64,000 bases of DNA from Woeseia sp. (GCA_019653755.1 BPCL01000004.1:5524-69523), one strand, 5' to 3'. Positions 36,126 to 51,637 are shown, numbered from the stretch's first letter. Numbers and translations are program-made. The notes: generated by a model from the sequence alone, not told the origin.

Positions 36126-36935
36126 ATGAAAAATCTCTTCTTAATTTTGTTATTCATTCCCTTGAGCCTTGATGCAAGTGAAAAAGATCATGAATTAATT
36201 ATGGCTACTCTATACGTTCAATCTTCGGCAGAGTTTTATGCCAATTCAAGCACCATTTATCGAGCAGCTCAAAATAATTTAGATGCATTATTGTCCGATA
36301 AAAATCATACGGCAGCGCTTGAACAGTTAGAAAATTTCAGTGACAAACCACCAGCAATTATCCTTGATGTCGATCAGACAGTATTAGACAACAGTGCGTA
36401 TCAAGCGAGAATCATTGAGAAGGGAACTGCTTACCCAGATGGCTGGTTTGATTGGGCAAAAGAAGAAAAGGCAGAATTTATGCCTGGTGCACTTGAATTC
36501 ATGAAATACGCACAATCAAAAGGTGTGGAAATATTTTTTGTGACCAACCGAGATCTTGAGATAGAAAAAGCAACAATCAATAATTATATAGCCCTTGGTT
36601 TCAGCACTTCTTCAGAAGAGAATATCCTATCTCGGGGGGAAAACGGTTGGGGATCTAACAAAACATCAAGAAGAGAATTGATCGCAAAAGATTATCGTAT
36701 AGTGATGATGTTTGGAGATAATTTTGGCGACTTTGTGGACAACAATGAAAATCTGCTCTCTCCCAAAGACAGAGTTGAAGCCATCAAGAAATACTCAAAA
36801 TATTGGGGCACATCTTGGTACATGTTCTCGAATCCAATGTATGGAGCATGGGAAGGATCGATCATAGATTTTAATTATGGGCAACCTAGAGATGAACTCC
36901 TGCAAAAAAAGTTAGATGCCTTAGACTCTAAATGA
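36126..36935 (+). CDS. Secreted HAD-superfamily acid phosphatase / 5'-nucleotidase, lipoprotein e(P4)-like (class C)
   Basis: Signal peptide, the DDDD-type motifs ILDVDQTVLDN and GDNFGDF, and FVTNR. The ATG at 36126 is preferred over the ORF start at 36108. Confidence 0.7.
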   Translation: MKNLFLILLFIPLSLDASEKDHELIMATLYVQSSAEFYANSSTIYRAAQNNLDALLSDKNHTAALEQLENFSDKPPAIILDVDQTVLDNSAYQARIIEKGTAYPDGWFDWAKEEKAEFMPGALEFMKYAQSKGVEIFFVTNRDLEIEKATINNYIALGFSTSSEENILSRGENGWGSNKTSRRELIAKDYRIVMMFGDNFGDFVDNNENLLSPKDRVEAIKKYSKYWGTSWYMFSNPMYGAWEGSIIDFNYGQPRDELLQKKLDALDSK

Positions 36936-38191
36936 GGTCATTTTTAAAATACCTATCCATTATTCTGATTACCTCTGTCTTAACGATCGTTGCTTTGATA
37001 CAAATTGCACCATTTATCATCGTAGTTCCCAAAAAAGACACCCAAGAAATTGAGATTAATTTTGACCAGAACGTTACAAAGAAAGAATTAAAAGCAGTAG
37101 ACAGGAAAGCTAAAAATATCATTCTTTTAATTGGTGACGGCATGGGAATTAATCAAATCACTGCCTACAGAATTGCCAAGGGAGGCCCGAATTATACTTC
37201 GGCCTTTGATAAATTTCCCCACACAGGCTTGATTAAAACTCATGCCATCAACACATTAATTACTGATTCGGCTGCCTCTGCTACTGCTTTTAGCTCAGGC
37301 ATTAAAACTGTTAACGGATATTTGGGAGTTAATAAGGATAAACAGGTGGTAAAAAATATAACGGAAATGTTGCATGAGAAAGGATACGTGACAAGTCTAA
37401 TTGCAACATCTGAAATTACCCATGCAACACCAGCTGCATTTGTGGTTCACAACGAGTCAAGAGACAACACAGATCAAATAGCTGAACAGTTATTTAGATC
37501 CAATAATTTTATTTCGCTCGGTGGAGGAAGAGATTTTTTTATCCCTGAAGATCTAGGCGGCCAACGAGAAGATGACTTGGATATTCTCGCTCTGATAAAA
37601 GAGGAAGAAGCCTACCTAGGATCTAGATCTGACTTAATTAATTTTCAATTAGACCCGTCAAAAAGAATTTTTGGATTATTCTCGAAAGAGGGGTTTATCC
37701 GTGAAGAAAGTGAACCCGATCTACTAGAAATGCTTGATTTTTCATTGGAGCAATCTAACAAGATGATTTCAAATAATTGCACTGGTTTTTTCATAATGGC
37801 AGAAGGCTCACAAATAGATTGGGAGGGCCACGAGAATAATTTTGACGGTGTGTACAAAGAGATGGATGAATTCAGTCGGGTTGTGGACAGAGCTCTAAAG
37901 TTTGCAGAATCAAATCAAGATACGCTCGTAATAGTCCTCTCAGATCATGAAACAGGCGGGCTTCTTATAGAAACAGATACTTGGGAAAGAAACCCTCAGC
38001 CTAGAAACAAAATGAAAATTTCATGGAACACAGCAGTTGGACTAGGAACTCACACAGGAACAATGATTCCCGTATTCGCCTTTGGGCCTGGGGCAGAAAA
38101 TATAGGTGGAGTGATGGATAACACAGATATATTCTTCATTATGGAAGAAGCGCTCGGCATTGATAATCTAGCTGAGAGAAAATGTTTATAA
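36932..38191 (+). CDS. phoA: Alkaline phosphatase (PhoA family), N-terminally membrane anchored
   Basis: LLIGDGMG, active-site TDSAASATA, SDHETGG, and a THTG-type His motif. ATGA overlap with the upstream phosphatase. Confidence 0.85.
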   Translation: MRSFLKYLSIILITSVLTIVALIQIAPFIIVVPKKDTQEIEINFDQNVTKKELKAVDRKAKNIILLIGDGMGINQITAYRIAKGGPNYTSAFDKFPHTGLIKTHAINTLITDSAASATAFSSGIKTVNGYLGVNKDKQVVKNITEMLHEKGYVTSLIATSEITHATPAAFVVHNESRDNTDQIAEQLFRSNNFISLGGGRDFFIPEDLGGQREDDLDILALIKEEEAYLGSRSDLINFQLDPSKRIFGLFSKEGFIREESEPDLLEMLDFSLEQSNKMISNNCTGFFIMAEGSQIDWEGHENNFDGVYKEMDEFSRVVDRALKFAESNQDTLVIVLSDHETGGLLIETDTWERNPQPRNKMKISWNTAVGLGTHTGTMIPVFAFGPGAENIGGVMDNTDIFFIMEEALGIDNLAERKCL

Positions 38192-38224
38192 TAAAAAGCA
38201 CCGTTAAGATAAGAAGAGGATGAT

Positions 38225-39169
38225 GTGGCTGAAATAGATATATTAGTAAGTGAAGTTGGACCTAGAGACGGTCTCCAAAGCATAGATTCTATTATGTCGA
38301 CTGATGACAAGAAAAAGTGGATAAAAGCTGAATCTGAGGCTGGGGTTAGAGAGATTGAGGTGGGTTCGTTCGTACGCCCAGATTTATTGCCACAGATGGC
38401 AGACACGGCAGAAATTGTGCAATACGCAAAAAGCCTACCAAACCTTACTGTTGCAGCCTTAGTGCCTAATTTTAAGGGCGCAAAAAATGCAATCGATGCC
38501 GGGGTGGACAAAATGTGTCTTCCTTTATCGGTCAGTGAAACCCACAGCAAAGCCAATTTGAATAAGAGTCATGAAGAGGTTCTAGCTGAGATAAAAAAAA
38601 TAGCCGAATACATCAAATCTCTTGATGAGGACAAAAGACCCGAGTTTGAAGGCAATTTGTCTACTGCTTTTGGTTGCACCTTAGAGGGTAAAGTTTCAGA
38701 AAAGGTTGTTGTGTCCCTAGGTGCACAAATGATGGAATTAGGCTGTGATGAAGTCGGCTTATCTGATACAACCGGTTACGCCAATCCAATACAAATTAAA
38801 AGACTGATTGGGTTGCTTAAAAGTGAGGTGGGTGATCACAATCTAACCAGTATGCATTTGCATAACACCAGAGGCTTGGGCTTAGCTAATGCTTTGGCCT
38901 CCATCGATGAGGGAATCACCACTCTGGATTCATCACTTGGTGGTATTGGGGGTTGTCCTTTTGCACCGGGTGCCAGTGGAAATATAGTTACTGAAGATTT
39001 AGTTTTTATGTTGGATTCCATGGGCCTAAAAACGGGCATTAATATCGAGGCTCTTATCGAAGTCAATAAAACTGTTAAAACATTTCTGCCCAACGAAGAA
39101 CTCTATGGTTTTACAATAGATTCAGGGCTTCCCAAAGGTTATAGCAAAGGTGGATGGGGCACTAATTGA
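38225..39169 (+). CDS. Hydroxymethylglutaryl-CoA lyase family protein
   Basis: VGPRDGLQS, EVGSFV.P..LPQMAD, HLHNTRGLGLAN and GLGGCPFAPGASGN. GTG start. Confidence 0.85.
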   Translation: MAEIDILVSEVGPRDGLQSIDSIMSTDDKKKWIKAESEAGVREIEVGSFVRPDLLPQMADTAEIVQYAKSLPNLTVAALVPNFKGAKNAIDAGVDKMCLPLSVSETHSKANLNKSHEEVLAEIKKIAEYIKSLDEDKRPEFEGNLSTAFGCTLEGKVSEKVVVSLGAQMMELGCDEVGLSDTTGYANPIQIKRLIGLLKSEVGDHNLTSMHLHNTRGLGLANALASIDEGITTLDSSLGGIGGCPFAPGASGNIVTEDLVFMLDSMGLKTGINIEALIEVNKTVKTFLPNEELYGFTIDSGLPKGYSKGGWGTN

Positions 39170-39176
39170 TTGAGCT

Positions 39177-40241
39177 TTAAAGCTTGTATTTGAAGTCAAT
39201 AAACATTTTTTTGTAATCAATATTCATTTTCTTCTGGTTGTCAAACCACGTTAGCTCAACACTAAGTTTTTTTGAAAAATTATAGCTAAGATTGAGTTGG
39301 TGACCTTTATGGCCAACTCCACCTCCACCAAAGTCTGAGTCTACAAGAGCAGCAAAGACAGCATTTGCTTCAGCGTCTTTATAAAAATAGGTTGCTTTCC
39401 ATCGATCATTTAATGTGAGCTTAGCTCCAATGAGGAAGGCTGTATCATTTTCGTCTGCTTTGGAGTTTTTTGCAAAATCAACAAAATAGGTAATTGGAAG
39501 TAAATCAGAACCTATTGTTGTCTTCATCTCAGCAGAGAGGTTAGTAACATTGTAGTTATTGAGGTAGTAATTATTTGCATCGACAGGATTGCCAAATAAT
39601 TTGCCGTTCCATGTGATGTCAGATGCCGGCCTTCCCTTAATATCATCAAAATTGTATTGAGCTATAGCAATCTTATAACTTGTATCTGCAGATACTTTTT
39701 TATTTAATCCGGCCTGAAGACCTATAATGTTTACTGCCTTAGGACCTCCTTCGTCAAACTTAATTAGCCCTATATTTCCAAAAAAACCATCCTTTTTATG
39801 GCCAATGACAATTCCCTCAGGATTGTAGTCTCCATCGAAGAGAAGCTGACTCTTATTAGGTTTAAAAAAAGGATTGGCGATTTTACCCAGAGACACGGAC
39901 GAAGTAGCTGTTAACAAATAATCAATGTAAGCCTGATCCACTCCAATATCGCTTAAAGTAAAGCCAGTGCCTAGAGTTTGGTTGGCAGATGTTGTGTTCT
40001 CCTCAGCTGTGGCTAGCCTAATTTTAATTTTTAATCGTTCGTTATCTGAATACTGAAATCCTAAGCGAGAGCGGATTCTATTTCTTCTTCGTTTGGAGGG
40101 TTTACTGCTATCGTCAGTGTATTCATATCGAAATCTAAAGTCATAAGATGTTGTCACCTCTGAAGCTGATAGCGATTGGGGAAAAATAAAGAAACATATG
40201 ATGGACACAAAGAATAGGTTTGATCCTATTTTATAAATCAT
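39177..40241 (-). CDS. Putative outer-membrane porin (beta-barrel), last gene of the DUF47-Pit operon
   Basis: Signal peptide and alternating amphipathic strands rich in aromatics/Gly/Asn. The C-terminus is ..FIDFKYKL. Family not recognised. Confidence 0.5.
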   Translation of the reverse strand: MIYKIGSNLFFVSIICFFIFPQSLSASEVTTSYDFRFRYEYTDDSSKPSKRRRNRIRSRLGFQYSDNERLKIKIRLATAEENTTSANQTLGTGFTLSDIGVDQAYIDYLLTATSSVSLGKIANPFFKPNKSQLLFDGDYNPEGIVIGHKKDGFFGNIGLIKFDEGGPKAVNIIGLQAGLNKKVSADTSYKIAIAQYNFDDIKGRPASDITWNGKLFGNPVDANNYYLNNYNVTNLSAEMKTTIGSDLLPITYFVDFAKNSKADENDTAFLIGAKLTLNDRWKATYFYKDAEANAVFAALVDSDFGGGGVGHKGHQLNLSYNFSKKLSVELTWFDNQKKMNIDYKKMFIDFKYKL

Positions 40242-40250
40242 TACTTTCCT

Positions 40251-41516
40251 CTACCCAAAGAAACCTTTTAGAGCAAAGAAAAAGAGGATGGATAATCCAG
40301 CACCGATGGGCAGTGTGACAATCCAAGATAAAATAATTTTTCCAACAACCCCAAGATTAATTGCACCAATGCCTCTTGCTAGACCAACGCCCAGTACTGC
40401 ACCAACCAGAGTATGCGTTGTTGAAATCGGCAAACCTGTTCCTGAAGCAATCACAACTGTTCCTGCAGCGGCAAGCTCAGCTGCAAAACCTCTGCTAGGA
40501 GTTAACTCTGTAATGGACCTACCTATAGTCATCATGACTCTATAACCCAACATGGCTAGCCCAATCACAATACCTGTAGCTCCAATCAATAAAACCCAGG
40601 CCGGTAGAATTGATTTAGAGGCTATCTCGCCACCGCTATTTACCACTGAGACAATTGCTGCTAGAGGGCCTATGGCGTTAGCCACATCATTCGACCCATG
40701 AGCAAAAGCCATTGCACAAGCTGTAAACACCATTAAAACGGCGAAGACTCGCTCTACCCCATCAAACATGGCACCATTTTTTTCTTGAGTCGTATTATCT
40801 ATTCTCTGCAATGCAAGGGTTCCTACTAAAGCAATGATCAGAGCGAACACAAGAGACCAGGCAATAGCTTCAGTGCCCGTAAAGGTTAACCCAACATGTT
40901 TTAGTCCTTTTAAGAAAGTTACCATAGCGACTACAAAGCCTGCTAAAAACATGTAGAAGGGAACATATCTTTTTGCGCTCATGAAAGGATCTGATGTTTG
41001 TAGAATTAATTTCTTAACACTAGTAAATAATAGAAAAGAAATCGTTCCAGCCATCACTGGCGAGACTACCCAGCTGGCAACAATTGAGGCAACCTTACCC
41101 CATTGAACAACATCAACTCCTATTCCTACAGCAGCAAATCCTACTATGGCTCCAACAATAGAATGTGTTGTTGAAACAGGCCAACCGAAATATGAAGCAA
41201 TCAATAACCAAATTCCTGCAGCTAACAAAGCAGCAATCATTCCATAAACTAAGAGTTGAGGCGTATCAGTAATTGCAGCTGTATCAATTATCCCTTTTCG
41301 TATAGTAGATGTAACCTCACCACCTGCTAGATAGGCTCCTGCAAATTCAAAGATACATGCAACTAATATAGCTTGAGCTAATGTTAATGCTCTTGCGCCT
41401 ACAGAAGTACCCATTGCATTTGCAACATCGTTTGCCCCGATACCCCAGGCCATAAAGAAACCGCAAACACAACCGACAACCAATAAGATAAAGCCGTATT
41501 CAGCGATTACTTCCAT
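40251..41516 (-). CDS. pitA: Inorganic phosphate transporter, PiT family
   Basis: Duplicated GANDVANAMGTSVG / GSNDVANAIGP signature. Multi-pass membrane protein of 421 aa. Confidence 0.9.
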   Translation of the reverse strand: MEVIAEYGFILLVVGCVCGFFMAWGIGANDVANAMGTSVGARALTLAQAILVACIFEFAGAYLAGGEVTSTIRKGIIDTAAITDTPQLLVYGMIAALLAAGIWLLIASYFGWPVSTTHSIVGAIVGFAAVGIGVDVVQWGKVASIVASWVVSPVMAGTISFLLFTSVKKLILQTSDPFMSAKRYVPFYMFLAGFVVAMVTFLKGLKHVGLTFTGTEAIAWSLVFALIIALVGTLALQRIDNTTQEKNGAMFDGVERVFAVLMVFTACAMAFAHGSNDVANAIGPLAAIVSVVNSGGEIASKSILPAWVLLIGATGIVIGLAMLGYRVMMTIGRSITELTPSRGFAAELAAAGTVVIASGTGLPISTTHTLVGAVLGVGLARGIGAINLGVVGKIILSWIVTLPIGAGLSILFFFALKGFFG

Positions 41517-41532
41517 AATCCTTTTCCTTTAA

Positions 41533-42210
41533 TCATTTTGATACTAAGCGAACTAGAAGGTGGCCTACAGTCTGGGAAATGTCTGCAAGAGAACCAATCT
41601 TATTGATCACATCGTAGAAAAACATGACCTCTACAGGATCATATTGTTTCTCATGTTCAAAAAATTTATTTCTCAAGGCTATTTCTAATTCATCGTTTTC
41701 TTTCTCAATTTGCTCTAATTCAATTACAAGCTCGCTTAATACTGATGCATCGTGAGACCCAAAGCCTCTTTTTTGCATTTCATCGACTTTTCTAATGGCA
41801 TCAGATGCTTGATTAGCTGCTTTTATTGCAGCCTTAGAGCAACTCATAAAGTCCTCAGTAACCTCTTTAGGAAGTTCCATTTTTCTTCCAATCATGACTC
41901 CTGAGATATCTTTTGCTGCATTAGGAATGCCATCCATGGTGAACACCAAATCCAGTAAATCCTGTCTAGAGACACTCATAAAGAGCGATTTTGGTAGATT
42001 ATTTCTAATAGTATTCTTTATGTCGTCCGCTTGATTCTCTAGTTTGACTATCTTTTCTCTGCATTCTGCTGCAGTGTTCCAATCTGATTGGGAAATAGCC
42101 TTTAAAAAATTCTCTAGTTCAGCTGTGGCTTGATTGCCAAGTGACATATGTTCTTGTAATCCAGAAAACGGTGAATCTGCAAGCATTCCAAGAAAAGTAT
42201 CAGAATTCAT
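41533..42210 (-). CDS. DUF47 / PhoU-related phosphate-transport regulator (Pit accessory protein)
   Basis: All-helical 225-aa protein directly upstream of the PiT gene, which is the usual DUF47-PiT pairing. A GAGGA Shine-Dalgarno sequence is present. Confidence 0.75.
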   Translation of the reverse strand: MNSDTFLGMLADSPFSGLQEHMSLGNQATAELENFLKAISQSDWNTAAECREKIVKLENQADDIKNTIRNNLPKSLFMSVSRQDLLDLVFTMDGIPNAAKDISGVMIGRKMELPKEVTEDFMSCSKAAIKAANQASDAIRKVDEMQKRGFGSHDASVLSELVIELEQIEKENDELEIALRNKFFEHEKQYDPVEVMFFYDVINKIGSLADISQTVGHLLVRLVSK

Positions 42211-42275: not shown

Positions 42276-42749
42276 TTATTTCTCAGAAGTTTGATCATAG
42301 AGAAATGCTATTAGATCATTCCGGTCTTCCTGTTTCCTCATTCCTGAAAATACCATCTTATTTCCAGGTAATATTTCATAAGGCTTCTCTAACCAAAGAT
42401 CAAGATTCTCTACAGTCCAAACAATTTCACTCCCCGATAAAGCATCTGAGTAGTTGTATCCATCTCGGATACCAGCTTTTGAACCAATTAACTTAAATAA
42501 ATTAGGTCCAATCTTGTGAGGCTCATTTTCTTTCAAAGAATGGCACGCTCTGCATTGGATATAGAGTTTGCTGCCTCTCTGTATATCGCCAACTGTCATT
42601 ATCGTTTCTAGATTAGCAATACTACTAGGTGGAACAGATTCTACTTTTTCATTATCGGGGCTCTGTTGATCGCTACAAGAAATCAATAGAAAAGAAACAA
42701 TAAGTAAACTTAGATTCTTCGAGCGGATCATAAGTATGTCAATCGTCAC
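42276..42749 (-). CDS. Class I c-type cytochrome (c2/c550-like), probable lipoprotein
   Basis: Lipobox LLISCS, heme motif CRACHS, and the distal Met region GNKMVFSGM...RNDLIAFL. ATGA overlap with the upstream gene. Confidence 0.8.
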   Translation of the reverse strand: MTIDILMIRSKNLSLLIVSFLLISCSDQQSPDNEKVESVPPSSIANLETIMTVGDIQRGSKLYIQCRACHSLKENEPHKIGPNLFKLIGSKAGIRDGYNYSDALSGSEIVWTVENLDLWLEKPYEILPGNKMVFSGMRKQEDRNDLIAFLYDQTSEK

Positions 42750-43609
42750 TCATAAATAACTGGACCGGTATCTTCTTCTAAGTTAAATCCGGATAACTCT
42801 GGGTGCTCTGCCATCATTCTTTTAGAGTACTCCTCTGGCAATTGGTCGATTGAATCTAACTTAACGCCTGATGCATGCCAAAGCGTATGGCCTTCAACAT
42901 CATCCATGTCCATCCATGGCAACCAAGGCATTAACACAGTGGCTGTAAACATCGTAGATAATGAAAGGTTATTTGGGTCAAGAAATTCATCCAAAGGAGC
43001 AAACATGGTCATTCTCTGTACTCTCGGTGGACTTAATCCTGGAGGGTATGAAGTCTGATTATGCAGCCAAACCGTCTTGGGACCAAAAGTCCAATCTAGG
43101 ATTAAAGGTTTATCAGGCATTTGATCAATAAAGGATGTTGGTCTCGAACCCATAGTTGAAATATTAAGACCTCTTCCCAAACTAGCTCGTCTGATATTTG
43201 GTGACACTTTATTTACTTTGCCTGTATAAGGATTTCTGTAATCCCGTATCATTTCTCCACTATCAACATCTCTAAAAAACGTCAGCATATTCCCAAGGAT
43301 TTCATACGACCCATCATCTTGTGGAATAACCTTGTAACTCTCCATCCCTTCGATTTTGACCATGGGAATGGGTTGCTCAGATCCTTTTTGAAAATACAGC
43401 GTCCCATTGTAGTGCCAAGGGACCTGGTCTTCATTACCTAGAGTCGATTGCATTCGCATGAGGTTCAATAAATTATTCACTGGCAAAGTCAAATCGGGTG
43501 CTGAAGAAGGCACCGTTCCACTAACCATGCTCTCAGTTTTATCAGAAGCAAGAACAGTAGCTAAACCGAGACCCATTAAAAACTCTCTTCTTAATAACTT
43601 CATCGACAT
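42746..43609 (-). CDS. Tat-exported periplasmic protein, family uncertain (DUF1838-like is only a guess)
   Basis: Twin-arginine signal MSMKLLRREFLMGLGLATVLA. No cofactor motif recognised. Confidence 0.55.
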   Translation of the reverse strand: MSMKLLRREFLMGLGLATVLASDKTESMVSGTVPSSAPDLTLPVNNLLNLMRMQSTLGNEDQVPWHYNGTLYFQKGSEQPIPMVKIEGMESYKVIPQDDGSYEILGNMLTFFRDVDSGEMIRDYRNPYTGKVNKVSPNIRRASLGRGLNISTMGSRPTSFIDQMPDKPLILDWTFGPKTVWLHNQTSYPPGLSPPRVQRMTMFAPLDEFLDPNNLSLSTMFTATVLMPWLPWMDMDDVEGHTLWHASGVKLDSIDQLPEEYSKRMMAEHPELSGFNLEEDTGPVIYE

Positions 43610-43627
43610 CGTATCTCCTTATATTTC

Positions 43628-44704
43628 CTAATTAACATTCGTTGATTCTATATGGTCGGTAACCTTGTCTGCAAGGAACTCAGCCACAGCGTAATGATCT
43701 TCTGTGACCTGCCACATTGACCATGTCCCTTTATATTGATCTTGCACTGGCTGATTTGGATCAGCAGAACCAAGTTCAGCTTGATAGCCCAAATGTCCAA
43801 ATTCAGAAACGTCATAAGCTAGAGAGGGATCTAGATCATCTCGTCTCTGATCAAGCTTTGCTTGCCTAGTTGGAGGGTAGGCCTGAGAGGTGCTGCACCC
43901 TCCCATTTCGAAGCAACACTCCTCGGTTTGATTTGCATTAACAGTGCTGGCACAAGATTGAGAGACCCATATTCCCCAATAATCTGCGAAGGGGTGTCCA
44001 TATTCTGGATAAGTGTCAAAATCCAAAGAATTGAAATAAAGCCAATTCTTATAACCGATTTCCTTTCCAATCTGATTGGGAACTTCTACGAGATTAAGAA
44101 CAGAATTTTCCATGATCTGAGGAAATGCCACGACAATATGTTTAACGTTATTTTTTCTGAGTTGATCAAGCGCTTCCCAATATCGATAACCCCATTCAGC
44201 TGAAGGCCTATCTCCGTCAGTATCATGAAGGATATTGTAACCTAGGTTCTCACCCCTCATTTCACGTGTTCTTTCCATTTGTGTGAAAGCTGGAGGAGCC
44301 GGTCTAACTCTTTCATTGATGACCATGTCGCCAAACCAGCCTCCGAGAATGTTTTCTTCACTTAACTCTGGGTAATTTTCTAACAATGCCTTTTTAATAT
44401 TCTTGTTAAGGGTAAGCGTGTCATTAATTTTTGGATCAAACACTTCATTGCCCGATAAAATACCGTGATTCACCATAAGCACAGCGGTGTCCTTAATTGA
44501 AATATCTTTGTTAAATTGAGCTGCAATGCCATCGGCTTGGAATTTAGCCAACCTCATATCCTCTATAACAGGATTGGGGTAATCGGAAAATTCTACTATA
44601 GGATTAAGCTCAGGCTTACCTTTAGACCGCGTCCACCCAGAAGGGTCTTGTGGGTATGATTTCACCATCAGATTGTCAGGATCATTGACCCATTCAATAA
44701 CCAC
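43628..44704 (-). CDS. Large uncharacterised lipoprotein, C-terminal part (continuation of 44668..45432 after a frame change)
   Basis: This frame is open upstream to 44761 and reads ..NVIDEHNKTTGDNVVIEWVNDP.. across the called start. It has no start context of its own. Confidence 0.5.
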   Translation of the reverse strand: MVIEWVNDPDNLMVKSYPQDPSGWTRSKGKPELNPIVEFSDYPNPVIEDMRLAKFQADGIAAQFNKDISIKDTAVLMVNHGILSGNEVFDPKINDTLTLNKNIKKALLENYPELSEENILGGWFGDMVINERVRPAPPAFTQMERTREMRGENLGYNILHDTDGDRPSAEWGYRYWEALDQLRKNNVKHIVVAFPQIMENSVLNLVEVPNQIGKEIGYKNWLYFNSLDFDTYPEYGHPFADYWGIWVSQSCASTVNANQTEECCFEMGGCSTSQAYPPTRQAKLDQRRDDLDPSLAYDVSEFGHLGYQAELGSADPNQPVQDQYKGTWSMWQVTEDHYAVAEFLADKVTDHIESTNVN

Positions 44705-45432
44705 GTTATCCCCGGTGGTTTTGTTGTGCTCATCAATGACGTTTCTGCCGCAGTATAAACGTCAAAGGATTTTGAGAAACGAGCTCCGGCAGTCGTTAGA
44801 TCCACCATAATGAATCGCTCAACCCCCACCTTTAGGAGCCTTTCGATGGGCCCATCAATATCGTAACGATTAGGATCGCAAAATAACCAAGACCAATCCC
44901 CTTTCCCACAAAAAGCAAGTATTGAACCGTCTTCAGTTCCGGGGTAATACAACATTCTCGGATTAGCCAACTCTTTAATATCAGGGCTCAACCAAGACAT
45001 CTTATCGACAATAAAATCAATTTCGTATTGATCTTCATAATCGGTCATGATTTCAACCAAATGCTCGGTCAGTTCAGCCTTAGATTTTGGGTACGGATCA
45101 ACACCTCCGATCCGCTCATACTCAAAAGAATATTTACCCGTCTCTTTTGGTGCGTTTCCAAAAACCAAGAGTTGTGGCCAATAATCAGGATTCCATAAAA
45201 TACGCTGATAGACCGGGCTATTTTTATCGTAGGAAAATATTTGGACTGTGGAATCCCAAACCTGTTGCTCTCCATAGGTCTCAAACCCACCGTGTGAGAC
45301 ATAAAGCACCCCTACCCTTGGTCGTTGCTTGTCCTCAGGGTTGTTGGTTTGTAATTGATCCGAGTATTGAGCACAAGCTGACAAAAAGATTGTCGCCATC
45401 AAGGGTATTAAAAATTTATAGTGCCTATTCAA
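44668..45432 (-). CDS. Large uncharacterised lipoprotein, N-terminal part
   Basis: The TTG start gives MNRHYKFLIPLMATIFLSAC (lipobox LSAC). Followed by VGVLYVSHGG.... Confidence 0.55.
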   Translation of the reverse strand: MNRHYKFLIPLMATIFLSACAQYSDQLQTNNPEDKQRPRVGVLYVSHGGFETYGEQQVWDSTVQIFSYDKNSPVYQRILWNPDYWPQLLVFGNAPKETGKYSFEYERIGGVDPYPKSKAELTEHLVEIMTDYEDQYEIDFIVDKMSWLSPDIKELANPRMLYYPGTEDGSILAFCGKGDWSWLFCDPNRYDIDGPIERLLKVGVERFIMVDLTTAGARFSKSFDVYTAAETSLMSTTKPPGITWLLNGSMILTI

Positions 45433-46096
45433 TACCTAGTGCTCCTGGGTTCATTAAATTCTTTGGGTCCAAGGATTGTTTTATTGATTTCAATGCATCA
45501 GAGGCCAATGGCTGTCTGCCTTTTTGGTATGGATAGCTCTTCCCAACTTGAAAATGAACAGCCCCTAGGTCTGAATATATGTCTTGTATTGACGCTCGAA
45601 GCTCGGCAACCAGGGCTCTTCCTTCTTTATTTTCTGGGTAAGTGGGAAGCATATCAAGATACTCTTGATCCAAGTAGAGTTTGTGATAAACCGTCCGCTC
45701 ATCTTGCCAATATAGAGCTACTTCGTAGAGAAAGCTGTGTGTTGAATAGGTCATATACATAGCACCTGCATAAACTGAGCACTCTTCCATTGCATCTTTC
45801 TTCTCCTCGTAGAGATCCATCAGTCGATTGTGCATCTCCTGCATCTTTGAGAACGATAAAAGTCCGTGCATAGGCACCCAACGTTCACCTTGAGGTCCTA
45901 AGATTGGATAGAGTGGCATAAAGGGCATAGCCCCTAAAACCGTTGGAATCGTATTGGCTATCTCGGTGCCAAAAGAAGAAACGGCTTTTCTGGTTTGTGC
46001 CAGTTTACTTTTGACTTCGCTCATGGAATGGCCTTCAACGACAAAGTGAGCTGAATAATCATAACCGGTTAAGAATCTCTTGCCGGCTATGGCCAT
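45425..46096 (-). CDS. FAD-linked oxidase, C-terminal (substrate/cap domain) part
   Basis: This frame is open upstream to 46159 and reads KNARNPLEAILQLFKMAIAGKRFLTG across the called Met. The C-terminus ..LDPKNLMNPGALGI is typical of GlcD/FAD-linked oxidases. Confidence 0.7.
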   Translation of the reverse strand: MAIAGKRFLTGYDYSAHFVVEGHSMSEVKSKLAQTRKAVSSFGTEIANTIPTVLGAMPFMPLYPILGPQGERWVPMHGLLSFSKMQEMHNRLMDLYEEKKDAMEECSVYAGAMYMTYSTHSFLYEVALYWQDERTVYHKLYLDQEYLDMLPTYPENKEGRALVAELRASIQDIYSDLGAVHFQVGKSYPYQKGRQPLASDALKSIKQSLDPKNLMNPGALGIE

Positions 46097-46998
46097 TTTG
46101 AAGAGCTGAAGAATCGCTTCGAGAGGATTGCGTGCGTTCTTAAAACAGCAAAAGCCGCTTTAAAAGCGTCAGCAATTGAAGTGCTCCCAAGTTGACCCTG
46201 TTGTAATTTAGGATCCAGTCCCCAATTACTTGATACTGATTCTTCTCTTGCAGCAGCCGCCATTGCCTGACTCATGGCATCATAACTTTTAAAACCGTAA
46301 GAACAGGTAAGACTGTGACTGGGCAATTTAATTAGGCGAAGAGTAATGCTCGCCTTGATGCCCAATGACCCAGCATCACCAGAAAATAAACCGGTTAAAT
46401 CAGGGCCATAATGCCTAAAGAATGGAGTGCTTTTTTCCATTGAAGAAGAGCCAGTTTTAAGAATTTCACCGCTTGCCAAAACAACGTCATAACACAGGAC
46501 TGACTCTGGTGAACCCCCGTATCTACTGGTTCCCATGCTGACACTATTTTGCGATGTCGAGCCGCCGACGGTGGCTTTTAACCCTGAGAACGGCCCCCAA
46601 AAAGGCGTCCTCAAATTTCTCTCGGCAAGCGCTGCAGCCATTTCTGCCCAAGTAACTCCTGGTTCAACGGTGATAAACATATCCTCTTCGTTGATCTCGA
46701 TAATCTTATTGAGTCGAGAGGTATCGATGATAAGTGATTGAGCGGTAGCCGGTAGGTAAGCGTCTGTATAAGATGCCCCTCCTCCACGAGTAATAACCGC
46801 AACATCTAAACCGGTTGTAACCCTCACAGCCTCTTGAAGCTCTTCTACTGAGCCCGGTTTAATAACAGCAATTGGAGTTTCAATTGACCTGTAGACATCC
46901 ATCGAATAAAAAGCCAGCGATTCTTGATCGGTTAAGACATGATCTTTTCCAACAGCTGCCTTTAGCACTTTAACCAAGTTTTTCTCGATATCAGACAT
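46087..46998 (-). CDS. FAD-linked oxidase (PCMH-type FAD-binding domain), N-terminal part
   Basis: VIKPGSVEELQEAVRV...VAVITRGGGASY and INEEDMFITVEPGVTWAE. The ATG at 46998 has GGAG 6 nt upstream; the ORF is open to 47025. Confidence 0.8.
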   Translation of the reverse strand: MSDIEKNLVKVLKAAVGKDHVLTDQESLAFYSMDVYRSIETPIAVIKPGSVEELQEAVRVTTGLDVAVITRGGGASYTDAYLPATAQSLIIDTSRLNKIIEINEEDMFITVEPGVTWAEMAAALAERNLRTPFWGPFSGLKATVGGSTSQNSVSMGTSRYGGSPESVLCYDVVLASGEILKTGSSSMEKSTPFFRHYGPDLTGLFSGDAGSLGIKASITLRLIKLPSHSLTCSYGFKSYDAMSQAMAAAAREESVSSNWGLDPKLQQGQLGSTSIADAFKAAFAVLRTHAILSKRFFSSSKWP

Positions 46999-47006
46999 CT
47001 CTACTC

Positions 47007-48680
47007 CTAGATCTCTATTGTCCACTCGTTCCTGTTTTCAGGCAGGGGCTTAAAAATAATTCTATTGTTTATCTTTGCCATTCTACTAGCAAAAACATCT
47101 CTTAAATTGCCTTGCCATGTCAGAACAGTCAAATCCATTGAAAGATTAATTAAATCTTCCTCAAAATCATATCCTAACAAATCATTTGTCACTAGCTGCA
47201 ATCGATCTCCACCTTTTAATAATTCAATAGCTTTGTTGTGAACTGACTCAGCTTCAATATCTGGCAGTCTCCCCAATGCACTTGAAACTTGTGACTTATA
47301 CCACGGAAAATATAGTTCACTATCACGTGCAAAATACCATGCTTTGAGAAGATGTTCGCCATAGGATGTTGGGGTAATATCGGGAATATAAGACTCTTTA
47401 AATTCTTCCTTCTCTTGATCATTCAAAAACCATGGGTCCAATGCCGCCAAGCGATCAACACTTAATTCTCTGCTCTCTGCAAGTCGCAAAGCTATCGGCA
47501 AGCTGCCACCAACAGCCAGTACACTAATTCGCTCTACCTTCAGGTTTTTCAAGGCTTCCCGTATCATCCTAGCAATCGACTGCGGGGAATAATTGCTTAA
47601 ATGACTAGGCCCTGTCTCTCCATGACCAGGAAGGTCGATCATTAACTTCAATGAAGCATTCTTGATCCCTTCAGAGTATCTGCGAGAACTTTTAGACGAC
47701 TCACCAAGATCGTGCAGAACCAAAACTATATTGTCCTTGTCCTCGCCCTCCGAGCAATAATAAAGAGGACCATAGGTTGTGGGAACAAACCCTTGCTTTC
47801 CTGATTTTAAATCCACTGAAGATGAAATTTTGATCTCCCCATTGTTTGCAGAGTGTTCTTTGAATATATCTCTTGATCTTTGTTCCACAGCAATGGGGTC
47901 AGGCAGAAGCTCAATCACAACATTTTCTGGAAGATTATCAAGTCGTTTAGGGTGGTCAGCTATAGGATCTCCCTCATAATTAATCAGATAGGTCGGAATT
48001 TTCAACTGCTTGATTCGATCTCTAGACGGGTATAAAAAAGCAGCTTTATAAGCTGTTTGAGACTCTGCATTTGAACGAACTAAATCTAATACATAAGGCT
48101 GTAAAAATTCTGGCGGGGGAAGATCGAGTGCCATCCTGCTGCTTGCTTCTTTTTTAAACCAAGGAAAGAAAATCAGCTGATCTCTTATCCTTGACCAAAT
48201 CCAAGGCATTTGCCCCCCTTCAGGGGTTGGCGAAAACCATTTAGTGTAATGAGCTAATATCTCCTCTTCCTCTTCAGGTTCAAGAACCACCAAACCATTG
48301 ACAACCACCACATTGCATAGATCCGGGTATAAGCGAGCCAACTCCGTGGCTATAATTGCTCCCGTATGAAAGCCATAAAAACAAGCTTTATCTATTGCCA
48401 ATGCATCTAGGAATTCTTTCAAAGCTTCGGCGTATTCAGTTATGTCTGGTTTAATATCATCTACAAAATCAGATAACCCAAACCCGGGTGTGTCTGGAGC
48501 AATAACGGTAAATTCATCACTAAATTGCTCAATCACTGAGGCCATCTCAGCAGAAGAAGTAGGACTTTGATGCAAAAGAACCAGTATCGGTCCCGAGCCA
48601 GAAACTCGATAATGGACTTGTCGAGAGCTCAAATTTACAAACCGTCTCTCAATGGAAATATTTTCGACTGATTGATACAT
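47007..48680 (-). CDS. Cytoplasmic protein with two tandem alpha/beta-hydrolase-fold halves
   Basis: Half 1: GSGPILVLLHQSP...DTPGFGLSD...CFYGFHTGAIIA. Half 2: IVLVLHDLGESS...DLPGHGETG...SVLAVGGSLPIA. No signal peptide. Confidence 0.7.
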   Translation of the reverse strand: MYQSVENISIERRFVNLSSRQVHYRVSGSGPILVLLHQSPTSSAEMASVIEQFSDEFTVIAPDTPGFGLSDFVDDIKPDITEYAEALKEFLDALAIDKACFYGFHTGAIIATELARLYPDLCNVVVVNGLVVLEPEEEEEILAHYTKWFSPTPEGGQMPWIWSRIRDQLIFFPWFKKEASSRMALDLPPPEFLQPYVLDLVRSNAESQTAYKAAFLYPSRDRIKQLKIPTYLINYEGDPIADHPKRLDNLPENVVIELLPDPIAVEQRSRDIFKEHSANNGEIKISSSVDLKSGKQGFVPTTYGPLYYCSEGEDKDNIVLVLHDLGESSKSSRRYSEGIKNASLKLMIDLPGHGETGPSHLSNYSPQSIARMIREALKNLKVERISVLAVGGSLPIALRLAESRELSVDRLAALDPWFLNDQEKEEFKESYIPDITPTSYGEHLLKAWYFARDSELYFPWYKSQVSSALGRLPDIEAESVHNKAIELLKGGDRLQLVTNDLLGYDFEEDLINLSMDLTVLTWQGNLRDVFASRMAKINNRIIFKPLPENRNEWTIEI

Positions 48681-48732
48681 GCTATGGGGGCTTATTATAG
48701 CTGTATATTCTCTTTAAATAACTCTCTATGTA

Positions 48733-50850
48733 TCAAAACTCGTATCTGACAATTAGGCCCATGTGTCTAGGATCTCCCTGACGCTCAAACAAGGTGGCGG
48801 GGAAATCAGGAGGAACATTCCCAAAATAGAATCCACGGAGTGAAAAATATTCATCAAAAATATTCCTGACCCAAAATTCGTATTTCCATTGATCTCGTTG
48901 ATAACCGAGAACTATATTTCCGAGCGTGTATGCGGATGATTTATTATTATGAGAATCAGAGTAATAAAAGCTACTCTTGCCGTTAATACCCATACTTAAA
49001 TAGATGTCATCAGTGACAAACCATTTCATGCCCGCTGCATAAGAGGTTCTGGGTGCATGAGCTTGGTCTCTGCCTTCCAAGGTAATGTTAGACCCGTGCT
49101 CAGTAACTTTTGTTCTTAACAGGCCAACGGATGCGTACATACTCAGTTGATCGCTCGGATTTGATTTTACAGTCATCTCAAGACCATAATTCTTTCCGCT
49201 GGCAGCGTTCTGTGTCAAAAAAGTAAAGGTGTTGGGATCGCCAGGATCTACTTGGGTTGAAGCCATAACCTGTTGATCTTTTCGGTCAGAGTAAAAAATG
49301 ACCATATCGATCCCAGTGTTTGACTCTGAGAATTGATGATTGACTCCAATCTCATAATTCCATAAGTATTCCGGCTCATAAACAAGGGTGTCATTGAATG
49401 ACTCAATCGATAAACCCGTGCCTAAATTGAACCCTCCTGATTTAAAACCCCTGCCAATACTTGCATAAATATTAGTGCTCTGATCCCATTGATTGATTAG
49501 AGATACCTTGCCGCCAAACATCTGATCACTCGGTGAGAAAGACTCACCAAATGTGTCTGAATAATCGGCCTCCCAGTCCTCCCATCGCAAGCCAAAACTC
49601 AGTCTCATGGATGGGGAGAGCGAATAGTCAAAACTCCCAAAAATAGCTTTATTCTCTGACGCATAATCTCTGGTCGCAGACACATCCTTAAAATAGGGAG
49701 GCCAGGGACTAAATGGGTCGATATAAGTGCCGAGATCTCTAATATCATTGCGCTCATTCAGTTTTAGATAATAAGCTCCAATCACCCAGGCAAAATCATC
49801 GTCTAATGTCTTATCTAGAGGCTCAGATAAGACTCTGAATTCCTGATTAAAAGATCGCCTTGAACGCTGTGTTTCAGAAAAGAAATCATAAGTATAAGGA
49901 CTGTTGGAGTCAGGATTACCCCAATCAGCATCGTAACTGACTGTAACATCGGAATTAGTGGCACTGGTTAAGCTTTGAACAATAGCATTTGTGGCTTGAT
50001 GATTGATCTTTAAGCCATAAGCTCTGGTGTCTTGAGAATCTAATCCTGGCTTATCAGATAGTGTGTTCAAACTGCCATCGATGTTCCAAGTATCCGATGA
50101 GGCATCAAAATCAGAGTTGAGTAAAAGAAAACTCAAATCTGTTATTTCACTTAATTGCCAATTTAGCTTTAAACGTCCTGTAAGTTCTTCTTTGCCTGTG
50201 GTGTCATCACGATTAAGGTATAGATTTTTTCTAAAGCCGTCGGTCTCATCTTGTCGCAATGACACTCTGTATTTAATGGCTGTGTTACCCTCAAAAGGAC
50301 CGCCAAAAGCTAAGCCAATATTTCGTATACCATCGCTTCCCAGGGTTAATTCAGATAATCCTTCGAAGGAGTCAGACGGTTCTTTAGATCGCATGTAGAT
50401 CATGCCAGCTAGAGCATTCGCACCCATTCTAGAGCCCTGAGGTCCGCGATGTACCTCGACTTGTTCCATGTCAAAACTACTAGCAACCCCACCTTGACCG
50501 GAGAAATCAATATCATCAATTATGAATCCCACAGAGCTATTCGGTGTGCCTTCATACCCTGATCGTTCTCCAATGCCTCTTATTTGAAAGTATCGTGGCC
50601 TGCCATCACTAACTGCCATATTAAGATTAGGCACAAGAAACGTCAGTTCTTCAAAATGTTTCATTGGTTGATCTTGTAATTGTTTTTCCTCAAGCAGCAA
50701 CAGACTACCGTCATTTTCTTCAAGTAGAGTTTCCCGGTAGTTGGCTTTAACTATAATTTCCTCAATACTGTCTGCAATTACAGGGGCTGCAAAGAGTGAT
50801 GCTGTATAAATTAATAGGACTGAAAAGAGTCGAAATGATAGATTGGTCAT
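48733..50850 (-). CDS. TonB-dependent outer-membrane receptor
   Basis: Signal peptide, TonB box IEEIIVKA, plug domain (HRGPQGSRMGANALAGMIYM), a 22-strand-type barrel, and C-terminal ..LIVRYEF. Confidence 0.92.
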   Translation of the reverse strand: MTNLSFRLFSVLLIYTASLFAAPVIADSIEEIIVKANYRETLLEENDGSLLLLEEKQLQDQPMKHFEELTFLVPNLNMAVSDGRPRYFQIRGIGERSGYEGTPNSSVGFIIDDIDFSGQGGVASSFDMEQVEVHRGPQGSRMGANALAGMIYMRSKEPSDSFEGLSELTLGSDGIRNIGLAFGGPFEGNTAIKYRVSLRQDETDGFRKNLYLNRDDTTGKEELTGRLKLNWQLSEITDLSFLLLNSDFDASSDTWNIDGSLNTLSDKPGLDSQDTRAYGLKINHQATNAIVQSLTSATNSDVTVSYDADWGNPDSNSPYTYDFFSETQRSRRSFNQEFRVLSEPLDKTLDDDFAWVIGAYYLKLNERNDIRDLGTYIDPFSPWPPYFKDVSATRDYASENKAIFGSFDYSLSPSMRLSFGLRWEDWEADYSDTFGESFSPSDQMFGGKVSLINQWDQSTNIYASIGRGFKSGGFNLGTGLSIESFNDTLVYEPEYLWNYEIGVNHQFSESNTGIDMVIFYSDRKDQQVMASTQVDPGDPNTFTFLTQNAASGKNYGLEMTVKSNPSDQLSMYASVGLLRTKVTEHGSNITLEGRDQAHAPRTSYAAGMKWFVTDDIYLSMGINGKSSFYYSDSHNNKSSAYTLGNIVLGYQRDQWKYEFWVRNIFDEYFSLRGFYFGNVPPDFPATLFERQGDPRHMGLIVRYEF

Positions 50851-50932
50851 GGTATTCCTCCGCCATAATTATATGGATCAGGTTCTAAGGGTTTCCTTAA
50901 GAATCTCAGGCGTTTCAGCCACCCCTTACCTT
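50851..50932 (-). promoter_or_regulatory. TPP (thiamine pyrophosphate, THI-box) riboswitch
   Basis: The reverse complement reads GGUAAGGGGUGGCUGAAACGCCUGAGAUUCUUAAGGAAACCCUUAGAACCUGAUCCAUAUAAUUAUGGCGGAGGAAUACC, followed by AUG. All conserved THI-element blocks are present in the correct order. Confidence 0.9.
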
Positions 50933-51001
50933 GCTGTCATCATAGTATAATTGCCTAAGTTTTGCTAATGTTGTGATTTATTTTAGAAACTCTAATAACA
51001 G

Positions 51002-51637
51002 ATGAATATTAACTACAAAGCTTTCCCGGTTGGCCCATTGCAATGCAACTGTACTGTCGTTGGTAATACCGAAACAGGAAAAGGTTACATCATTGATCCG
51101 GGTGGCGATCCAGAGATGATTATGCAAACGGTGAATGAGATGAATTTATCCATTGAAGCTATTTATCACACCCACGCTCATTTTGATCATTTCTTAGCTT
51201 CAGCTGAAATCAAAGAGAAAACTGGTGCACCTATTTTCCTTAATGAAGCTGATCGATTTCTTTGGGACAGCTTAGAAATGCAGTGCAACTATTTTAATAT
51301 TGATTTCAAGCCAACCCCTCCACCAGATTTCAATATTGAAGACCAACAGGATCTAGAACACTGTTCAGGAGTTTGTCTTCTTACCCCTGGTCATACTCCA
51401 GGATCTGTCAGTTTCCATTTCGACTCAGCAAAACTTCTGGTTGCTGGGGATACACTATTTCAAGGCTCTGTGGGTAGAACTGATCTACCAGGTGGTGATT
51501 TCAAAATGCTGAAGGATTCGATACAAAATAAAATTTATTCCTTGGATGAAGCGACTAATGTAATCACTGGGCACGGTCCAGAAACCACCATTAGAAGAGA
51601 AATGGAAAGCAACCTGTTTATCAGGCACGACAGTTAA
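51002..51637 (+). CDS. MBL-fold metallo-hydrolase (YcbL/glyoxalase II-like)
   Basis: HTHAHFDH metal motif, TPGHTPGS, and GDTLF.GSVGRTD. Confidence 0.85.
   Translation: MNINYKAFPVGPLQCNCTVVGNTETGKGYIIDPGGDPEMIMQTVNEMNLSIEAIYHTHAHFDHFLASAEIKEKTGAPIFLNEADRFLWDSLEMQCNYFNIDFKPTPPPDFNIEDQQDLEHCSGVCLLTPGHTPGSVSFHFDSAKLLVAGDTLFQGSVGRTDLPGGDFKMLKDSIQNKIYSLDEATNVITGHGPETTIRREMESNLFIRHDS

Follow-up and report, generated by a model that had tools for sequence, protein, structure and literature searches.

Which process calls for three consecutive genes whose products are all exported? The question is raised by a locus of Woeseia sp. (GCA_019653755.1 BPCL01000004.1:5524-69523), analyzed here within a stretch of 64,000 nt (the window; all positions are counted from its first letter). 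The original prediction had described a large lipoprotein, a protein exported by the twin-arginine (Tat) pathway and a cytochrome c-like lipoprotein. The export signals of all three products were found where they had been placed and are kept in homologues, hence they are not due to chance. The window holds a conserved envelope cluster, which comprises an alpha/beta hydrolase, a VAO-type flavoenzyme without signal peptide, a lipoprotein with ferrochelatase fold, a DUF1838 protein and a cytochrome c2. The best reading of this cluster is a periplasmic module that handles scavenged tetrapyrrole, which we hold tentatively and at slightly less than an even chance.

The exported lipoprotein and its ferrochelatase fold

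The lipoprotein is named only 'hypothetical protein' by sources. No Pfam or NCBIfam match was obtained for either of its halves, and both single-sequence and profile searches against the PDB returned nothing significant; the family profile finds no ferrochelatase there. The family is compact, with 599 matches at 90% clustering, all of at least about 45% identity, and 160 representatives, mostly fragments, among 1.84 billion 50% clusters. The signal peptide of the protein in the window reads ...IFLSAC and includes the lipobox LSAC. Across 34 aligned homologues, a lipobox was found in most and a plain signal peptide in few. About 110 positions of this alignment are invariant, including H47 (in HGG), H323 (in NH), R107, many Arg and Lys residues and six Cys, which by their number would fit three periplasmic disulfides.

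An AlphaFold2 model of the intact lipoprotein, built with the 34-member alignment, reached a pLDDT of 85.7 and a pTM of 0.88. Using Foldseek against the PDB, 43 matches were found at E <= 1e-3, all of which are ferrochelatase/CpfC (best E 8e-9, probability 1.00, target-normalised TM-scores of 0.51-0.65). The next fold class, LacI and periplasmic binding proteins, appeared only at an E of about 0.02. The original prediction had ventured a class II chelatase-like fold from two strand-His motifs, VGVLYVSHGG at residues 40-49 and AVLMVNHGILSG at residues 316-327. At fold level this guess was borne out, and in the model each motif sits where the first strand of its lobe ends (E39-46 and E316-322, respectively).

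A sub-threshold phmmer alignment to human ferrochelatase (M76H variant) sets QRPRVGVLYVSHGGFETYG...FEYERIGGVDP against RKPKTGILMLNHGGPETLG...QYRRIGGGSP. Within the N-lobe, RVGVLYVSHGGFETYG is paired with TGILMLNHGGPETLG and FEYERIGGVDP with QYRRIGGGSP, and the same N-lobe register was obtained with hhalign. In both alignments H47 falls at the porphyrin-facing position of human M76 and B. subtilis Y13. R107 falls at human R115 in the phmmer alignment, a residue which we take to be a propionate ligand. The N-lobe strand-GG loop and the motif Y-x-R-I-G-G-x-x-P are common to the lipoprotein and to HemH/CpfC/FECH (PF00762), as are the two-lobed Rossmann-like fold, to which the only significant PDB matches belong, and a His following a lobe's first strand.

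In other respects the lipoprotein differs from HemH/CpfC/FECH. It exceeds bacterial HemH by about 290 residues (601 compared to about 310 aa), it is exported and lipid-anchored, it has the six invariant Cys and no PF00762 match, and it carries a His at the M76/Y13 position and an apparent Leu in place of the catalytic Glu. Whereas HemH is usually located on the cytoplasmic side and co-occurs with the haem pathway, a lipobox or signal peptide is found throughout the lipoprotein family, which occurs in genomes without haem pathway and never beside haem-synthesis genes.

The hhalign comparison with the HemH alignment is weak (E 0.0008-0.009). In the C-lobe it pairs HIVVAFPQIMENSVLNLVEV with NIQVICPGFAVDCLETLEEL and provisionally places the invariant L446 at the catalytic Glu (first E of ETLEE) and E450 at the second Glu. 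The position of the catalytic His depends on the approach, since the strand order of the AlphaFold2 model leads to the invariant H323 and the weak profile alignment to F367 (GGWFG compared to SFHS). HemH-type catalysis appears doubtful because this weak alignment puts L446 at the catalytic Glu and F367 at the catalytic His.

An active periplasmic ferrochelatase, inserting Fe(II) into scavenged porphyrin, or a dechelatase, taking iron from haem, is quite improbable for these residues and for two further reasons, namely the missing PF00762 match and the lack of a periplasmic ferrochelatase precedent in the literature searched. Such an enzyme would be in agreement with the fold, with the invariant His that ends the first strand in both lobes and with the model topology, in which H323 occupies the place of the HemH catalytic His, an assignment that the profile alignment does not back. 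It would also agree with the finding that HemH is the sole late-pathway enzyme left in several carriers, which suggests porphyrin salvage in these lineages, and the cytochrome c could supply the reductant.

We conclude that the lipoprotein is genuinely homologous to ferrochelatases, though highly divergent, and that exported class II chelatase homologues of this kind form an undescribed family. In the literature searched, nothing was found that links a ferrochelatase-like protein to the periplasm. Judged by the comparison of sequences and models, the lipoprotein has probably kept the ability to bind a porphyrin-like ligand and is unlikely to carry out the HemH reaction in the way HemH does. 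Such a protein would extend the class II chelatases to the periplasm.

Distribution of the lipoprotein and of haem genes

Uroporphyrinogen decarboxylase (HemE) was found to be absent from 51 of the 58 genomes carrying the lipoprotein. For the order to which the window belongs, 41 genomes were analyzed. The lipoprotein is present in 20 of these, none of which has HemE or canonical HemH; among the 21 genomes without lipoprotein, HemE was found in 17 and HemH in 16. The remaining carriers are 38 further distinct genomes (40 handles minus two that duplicate genomes already counted), with no HemE match in 31, a strong match in five and a weak partial match in two. They include Alphaproteobacteria labelled Rhodospirillaceae with genomes of 3-5.7 Mb.

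In the family of the window, with genomes of about 1.5 Mb and 19-20 genomes per search, HemE and HemH were not found, while HemB and HemJ gave one match each, that of HemB on a small contig. A FecCD-type permease was found in none of 19 genomes of this family. The genome of the window itself encodes CcmC, CcmE, CcmF and CcmH. These gene sets suggest tetrapyrrole auxotrophy in the lineage, with no canonical importer for haem or B12. Eight carriers are sponge symbionts (G040 and G049-G055), among which HemB and HemE were found in 0 of 8 and a FecCD-type permease is missing in 7 of 8. Many of the further carriers keep HemB, and the sponge symbionts and several Rhodospirillaceae keep canonical HemH.

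Haem auxotrophy itself is established for Haemophilus influenzae, which keeps only HemH of the pathway, and HmuRSTUV-type uptake is a known means of salvage. The carriers resemble such auxotrophs in that they lack the haem pathway yet make cytochromes, and some of them keep HemH alone. They differ from known salvage of the HmuRSTUV type in the missing FecCD-type permease of the window's family and of seven of the eight sponge-symbiont genomes. We know of no salvage protein with a chelatase fold. A preprint on haem auxotrophy does not mention Proteobacteria. New here is the lack of HemE in most carriers, together with the additional lack of HemB, HemH, HemJ and a FecCD-type importer in a family which has Ccm genes. 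Streamlined marine Gammaproteobacteria of one whole family, and related sponge symbionts, are without haem pathway and canonical inner-membrane importers, yet mature c-type cytochromes. As an exported ferrochelatase homologue that is nearly confined to such genomes, the lipoprotein is a concrete candidate for the missing haem step.

A replacement of HemH by the lipoprotein in de novo synthesis was rejected, since HemB, HemE and HemJ are also absent. Another ferrochelatase-like family (proteins of about 500 aa), with an N-terminal membrane anchor and weak PF00762 matches (E 1e-5 to 1e-9), was observed in many carriers (L092 799-2295 in genome G019, also G008, G010, G034 and G040). Many genomes without HemE contain both this family and the lipoprotein, which have no pairwise similarity to each other. 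This family was likewise rejected as a HemH replacement, since the window's genome does not have it and its occurrence in the window's family is sporadic.

Partner proteins, gene order and the function of the cluster

The Tat protein begins MSMKLLRREFLMGLG, with the ribosome-binding site AAGGAG 5 nt upstream. It matches PF08894 with 70.2 bits (cut-off 25), and all homologues carry this domain. The original prediction was to fall if the Tat motif proved not to be conserved; the twin arginine is invariant in 30 aligned DUF1838 proteins, distant paralogues included, and is followed by a hydrophobic stretch. The earlier failure to recognise a cofactor motif in the Tat protein or the lipoprotein also stands, as Pfam returns DUF1838 only for the former and nothing for the latter. 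An AlphaFold2 model of the DUF1838 protein is a beta-barrel (pLDDT 88.4) without neighbour below E 1e-3 in the PDB. Structural matches to PsbO, lipocalin and a Riemerella haemophore (E >= 1e-3, TM-score < 0.3) are those of generic beta-barrels and were not interpreted.

The genome of the window has nine DUF1838 matches, and other carrier-type genomes have up to 35 (range 7-35). No match was obtained in 13 of 17 HemE-positive relatives (1, 1, 2 and 7 in the other four) or in 14 controls. The literature searched holds nothing on the function of DUF1838, a gene of this type being merely listed in Streptomyces clusters. In contrast to what is known from there, the proteins described here are Tat-exported, multi-copy and linked to flavoenzymes. 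DUF1838 thereby gains a first functional context, given by Tat export, several copies per genome and pairing with flavoenzymes. Seven DUF1838 loci were located in the 1.5-Mb genome, on contigs C1, C4, C5 and C9 and, except for 42746-43609, outside the window, most of them with RR leaders, and one tandem pair adjoins an oxidase with Tat signal and FAD_binding_4/BBE domains.

The third protein has the lipobox LISC, the haem motif CRACH and the sequence GNKMVFSGM around the probable axial Met. It matches PF00034 with 24.5 bits (cut-off 21.3) and a CycA-like domain with E 7e-20, well below the equivalog cut-off. The lipobox Cys was found in 11 of 11 orthologues. From these features, the protein is assigned to the mitochondrial/c2-type class I cytochromes c and classed as lipid-anchored. 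The last two genes had been described as translationally coupled by ATGA. This was not confirmed: the DUF1838 stop codon TGA (42748-42746) overlaps a GTG, a possible start of the cytochrome gene, as GTGA, and the quoted ATGA consists of the ATG at 42731 and the next base. This ATG (42731-42729), 14 nt past the DUF1838 stop, is the likelier start and gives MIRSKNLSLLIVSFLLISC.

The flavoenzyme shows FAD_binding_4 (E 5e-32) and FAD-oxidase_C domains. Its nearest solved structures are glycolate oxidase, D-lactate dehydrogenase and p-cresol methylhydroxylase (PCMH), matched in the FAD domain only.

Gene order was compared in 80 loci from GTDB species genomes. The window's family has kept the order hydrolase-FAD oxidase-lipoprotein-DUF1838-cytochrome c-PhoU-Pit-porin, in which the hydrolase, upstream of the FAD oxidase, is the first gene of the cluster. 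The set flavoenzyme-lipoprotein-DUF1838 was found again in sponge symbionts, Ca. Foliamicus and its relatives, where seven of the eight carrier genomes show it (loci L027-L038; G055 was outside this analysis). DUF1838 lies immediately 3' of the lipoprotein gene on the same strand, at distances of -37 to +40 nt, in 22 loci of two clades, and the cytochrome c joins them throughout the window's family. The co-occurrence of the three families was thus confirmed, and the predicted triad was refined in that the conserved unit also takes in the signal-less FAD oxidase. The cytochrome c is confined to the window's own family.

In many other lineages the lipoprotein occurs alone or beside other oxidative enzymes. 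Besides DUF1838, the commonest neighbours are MFS transporters, VanA-type Rieske oxygenases, SDRs, luciferase-like monooxygenases (LLMs) and alpha/beta hydrolases. A convergent MFS transporter and a Rieske oxygenase are conserved near the lipoprotein gene in other Gammaproteobacteria. In Alphaproteobacteria, a VanA-type Rieske oxygenase is found upstream and a chlorophyllase/PETase-like hydrolase 4 nt downstream, a set that is a different conserved operon around the lipoprotein. The hydrolase matches Pfam Chlorophyllase (52 bits) and lies within about 4 nt of the lipoprotein in L060, L067, L070, L071 and L076. In L071 the lipoprotein gene overlaps the hydrolase gene by 12 nt, and the VanA-type Rieske oxygenase is upstream in L060 and L071.

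These neighbours would suit the main rival reading, in which the cluster is a module that oxidises an organic substrate other than a tetrapyrrole in the periplasm. Electrons would pass from a flavoenzyme dehydrogenase to the lipid-anchored cytochrome c, as in PCMH or NicA2/CycN, the Tat-targeted DUF1838 partner may carry the signal-less flavoenzyme across the membrane by hitch-hiking, and the lipoprotein would merely be a substrate-binding protein or scaffold, like a periplasmic binding protein. PCMH (PchF/PchC) and NicA2/CycN are periplasmic flavoenzymes that use cytochrome c as electron acceptor. They share with the present cluster a VAO-superfamily flavoenzyme encoded with a small class I cytochrome c and a Tat signal on one of the components; the FAD oxidase is a VAO/PCMH superfamily member, and the flavoenzyme/DUF1838/cytochrome c set has the look of a periplasmic dehydrogenase:cytochrome c module. 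The differences are that here the flavoenzyme lacks a signal peptide and a different protein, DUF1838, bears the Tat signal, that the cytochrome is a lipoprotein, and that a chelatase-fold protein is inserted between flavoenzyme and cytochrome. The likeness to PCMH is limited to the FAD domain, and the signal peptide of a periplasmic flavoprotein is missing.

FAD oxidase and DUF1838 stay together even when the lipoprotein is elsewhere, as in Chromatiales bin74, where FAD_binding_4-DUF1838-DUF1838 are grouped and the lipoprotein is 1.9 Mb away. The expansion of DUF1838, the Tat-signal oxidase beside the second DUF1838 pair of the window's genome and the relation of the ferrochelatase fold to periplasmic binding proteins, seen as a weak second tier of Foldseek matches, also fit an oxidation module. 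We nevertheless regard this explanation as rather unlikely. It leaves unexplained the ferrochelatase-specific fold match, the kept porphyrin-side motifs of the N-lobe and the regular lack of HemE in carriers, and the flavoenzyme may simply be cytoplasmic, hitch-hiking being a hypothesis.

The handling of scavenged tetrapyrrole is preferred because the fold is specific to ferrochelatases, the porphyrin-side motifs are kept, the protein is exported and its carriers are largely unable to make haem, and because the window's family is without known haem importer yet matures cytochromes c. In bacteria unable to make haem, the lipoprotein would bind or process an externally acquired tetrapyrrole (haem, free porphyrin or possibly corrinoid) in the periplasm. 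Electrons would be supplied or taken up by the cytochrome c, possibly together with the flavoenzyme/DUF1838 pair, for instance in order to keep bound haem or iron reduced. We infer the tetrapyrrole as ligand and the roles of the partners, as well as the choice between binding, chelating and dechelating.

Several observations weigh against this reading. Tetrapyrrole binding is deduced indirectly, from fold, motifs and distribution, and the residues at the catalytic Glu and His positions described above depart from HemH or are placed inconsistently. No signal peptide was found in the FAD oxidase of the window or in 24 orthologues. The expansion of DUF1838 to 7-35 copies in carrier genomes and its pairing with other Tat flavoenzymes mean that its presence at the cluster need not concern haem, and the neighbours across lineages look like those of organic-substrate catabolism. 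Five carriers have strong HemE matches and several have canonical HemH. The link to haem auxotrophy may rest on few independent events: many of the genomes labelled 'Chromatiales', 'Chromatiaceae' and 'Woeseia' could be members of a single order, which would leave perhaps one clade each in the Gammaproteobacteria and the Alphaproteobacteria. As many carriers may come from a few clades, their counts overstate independence; the association does hold in at least two classes.

A more far-reaching form of the scavenging reading is that the lipoprotein is the core of a new periplasmic route of haem or porphyrin acquisition in auxotrophic marine and sponge-symbiotic Proteobacteria without HmuTUV/FecCD-type importer, which we consider unlikely though worth stating. 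Scavenged haem would be held between the two invariant His, or scavenged porphyrin would be metallated, and the lipid-anchored cytochrome c and the DUF1838/flavoenzyme pair would give redox support, possibly feeding the Ccm machinery directly.

Layout of the locus, interrupted genes and riboswitch insertion

The features of the locus are listed in the table. The end of the FAD oxidase gene overlaps the start of the lipoprotein gene. The alpha/beta hydrolase has matches in both halves and apparently consists of two domains.

Table. Features of the lipoprotein locus and their positions in the window
Feature	Position	Strand	Remarks
Lipid-anchored class I (c2/mitochondrial-type) cytochrome c	42276-42749	minus	probable start ATG 42731; PF00034
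Tat-exported DUF1838 protein, 287 aa	42746-43609	minus	PF08894 match; LRREFLMGLG
Lipoprotein, ferrochelatase fold	43628-45432	minus	about 601 aa intact; here open reading frames 44668-45432 and 43628-44704
VAO/GlcD-type FAD-linked oxidase, no signal peptide	45425-47025	minus	split: 46087-47025 and 45425-46096
Alpha/beta hydrolase, 557 aa	47007-48680	minus	Abhydrolase_1, E 2.5e-18
TonB-dependent receptor	48733-50850	minus	Plug and beta-barrel domains
Thiamine pyrophosphate (TPP) riboswitch before TonB-dependent receptor	50838-50936	minus	RF00059; 58.9 bits, gathering 54.3; E 5e-9
MBL-fold gene	51002-51637		beyond riboswitch and receptor from the hydrolase gene

The large lipoprotein of the original prediction was right as to motifs and span, but in this assembly it is encoded by two open reading frames and not by one. 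The window was aligned to two independent assemblies, L001 (97.6% DNA identity) and the contig L002 of a metagenome-assembled genome (MAG; 96.4%). Exactly two gaps were found, both of them 1-nt deletions in the window relative to L001 and L002. One is located in the lipoprotein gene between 44747 and 44746 and the other in the FAD oxidase gene between 46137 and 46136, both outside long homopolymers. L001 and L002 both encode an uninterrupted lipoprotein of 601 aa and an intact FAD oxidase (533 aa in L001). The metagenome protein P0001, from contig L001, has an uninterrupted 601 aa and shares 99% identity with the joined lipoprotein; 432 members make up its 90% cluster. A third gene of the same assembly, a DUF1838 paralogue on contig 9 (C9 40093-40970), is also split by a frameshift, so that an assembly error is at least as likely as real decay. 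The cluster in this assembly is either inactive or mis-assembled.

The TPP riboswitch and the TonB-dependent receptor form a module of 2.3 kb (48690-51000) between the MBL-fold and the hydrolase genes. Four relatives have the MBL-fold and hydrolase genes immediately next to each other. No TPP riboswitch was found near the cluster in 16 related loci, the TPP riboswitch of congeners is on a different contig from the lipoprotein, and the relatives have no homologue of the receptor upstream of the cluster. Riboswitch and receptor are therefore an insertion specific to the window's genome, outside the conserved cluster. The six genes behind the riboswitch might be read as an operon for thiamine-related uptake or processing, given that a genuine TPP riboswitch lies directly upstream of the receptor on the strand of the cluster and that no terminator is predicted between it and the hydrolase gene. 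A promoter-like site between receptor and hydrolase gene and the genome-specific nature of the insertion make this very improbable. Thiamine as the ancestral function was rejected on the latter ground. A second TPP riboswitch was observed on contig 12 of the window's genome.

Downstream of the cytochrome c gene, PhoU_div, a PHO4-type phosphate transporter and a porin are encoded. Together with an alkaline phosphatase, these phosphate genes flank the cluster at 36932-42210. The FAD oxidase-DUF1838 pair of Chromatiales bin74 (L087 15406-20861) is near CHAD, PhoB, PhoR, PhoU and PstS. The proximity of phosphate genes in both cases may be a coincidence. Borderline matches to the SAM_alpha riboswitch (36.7 bits, gathering 36) were observed at L006 228-304 and L109 253-329 (the latter from G017), two MAG loci of the window's gammaproteobacterial family.

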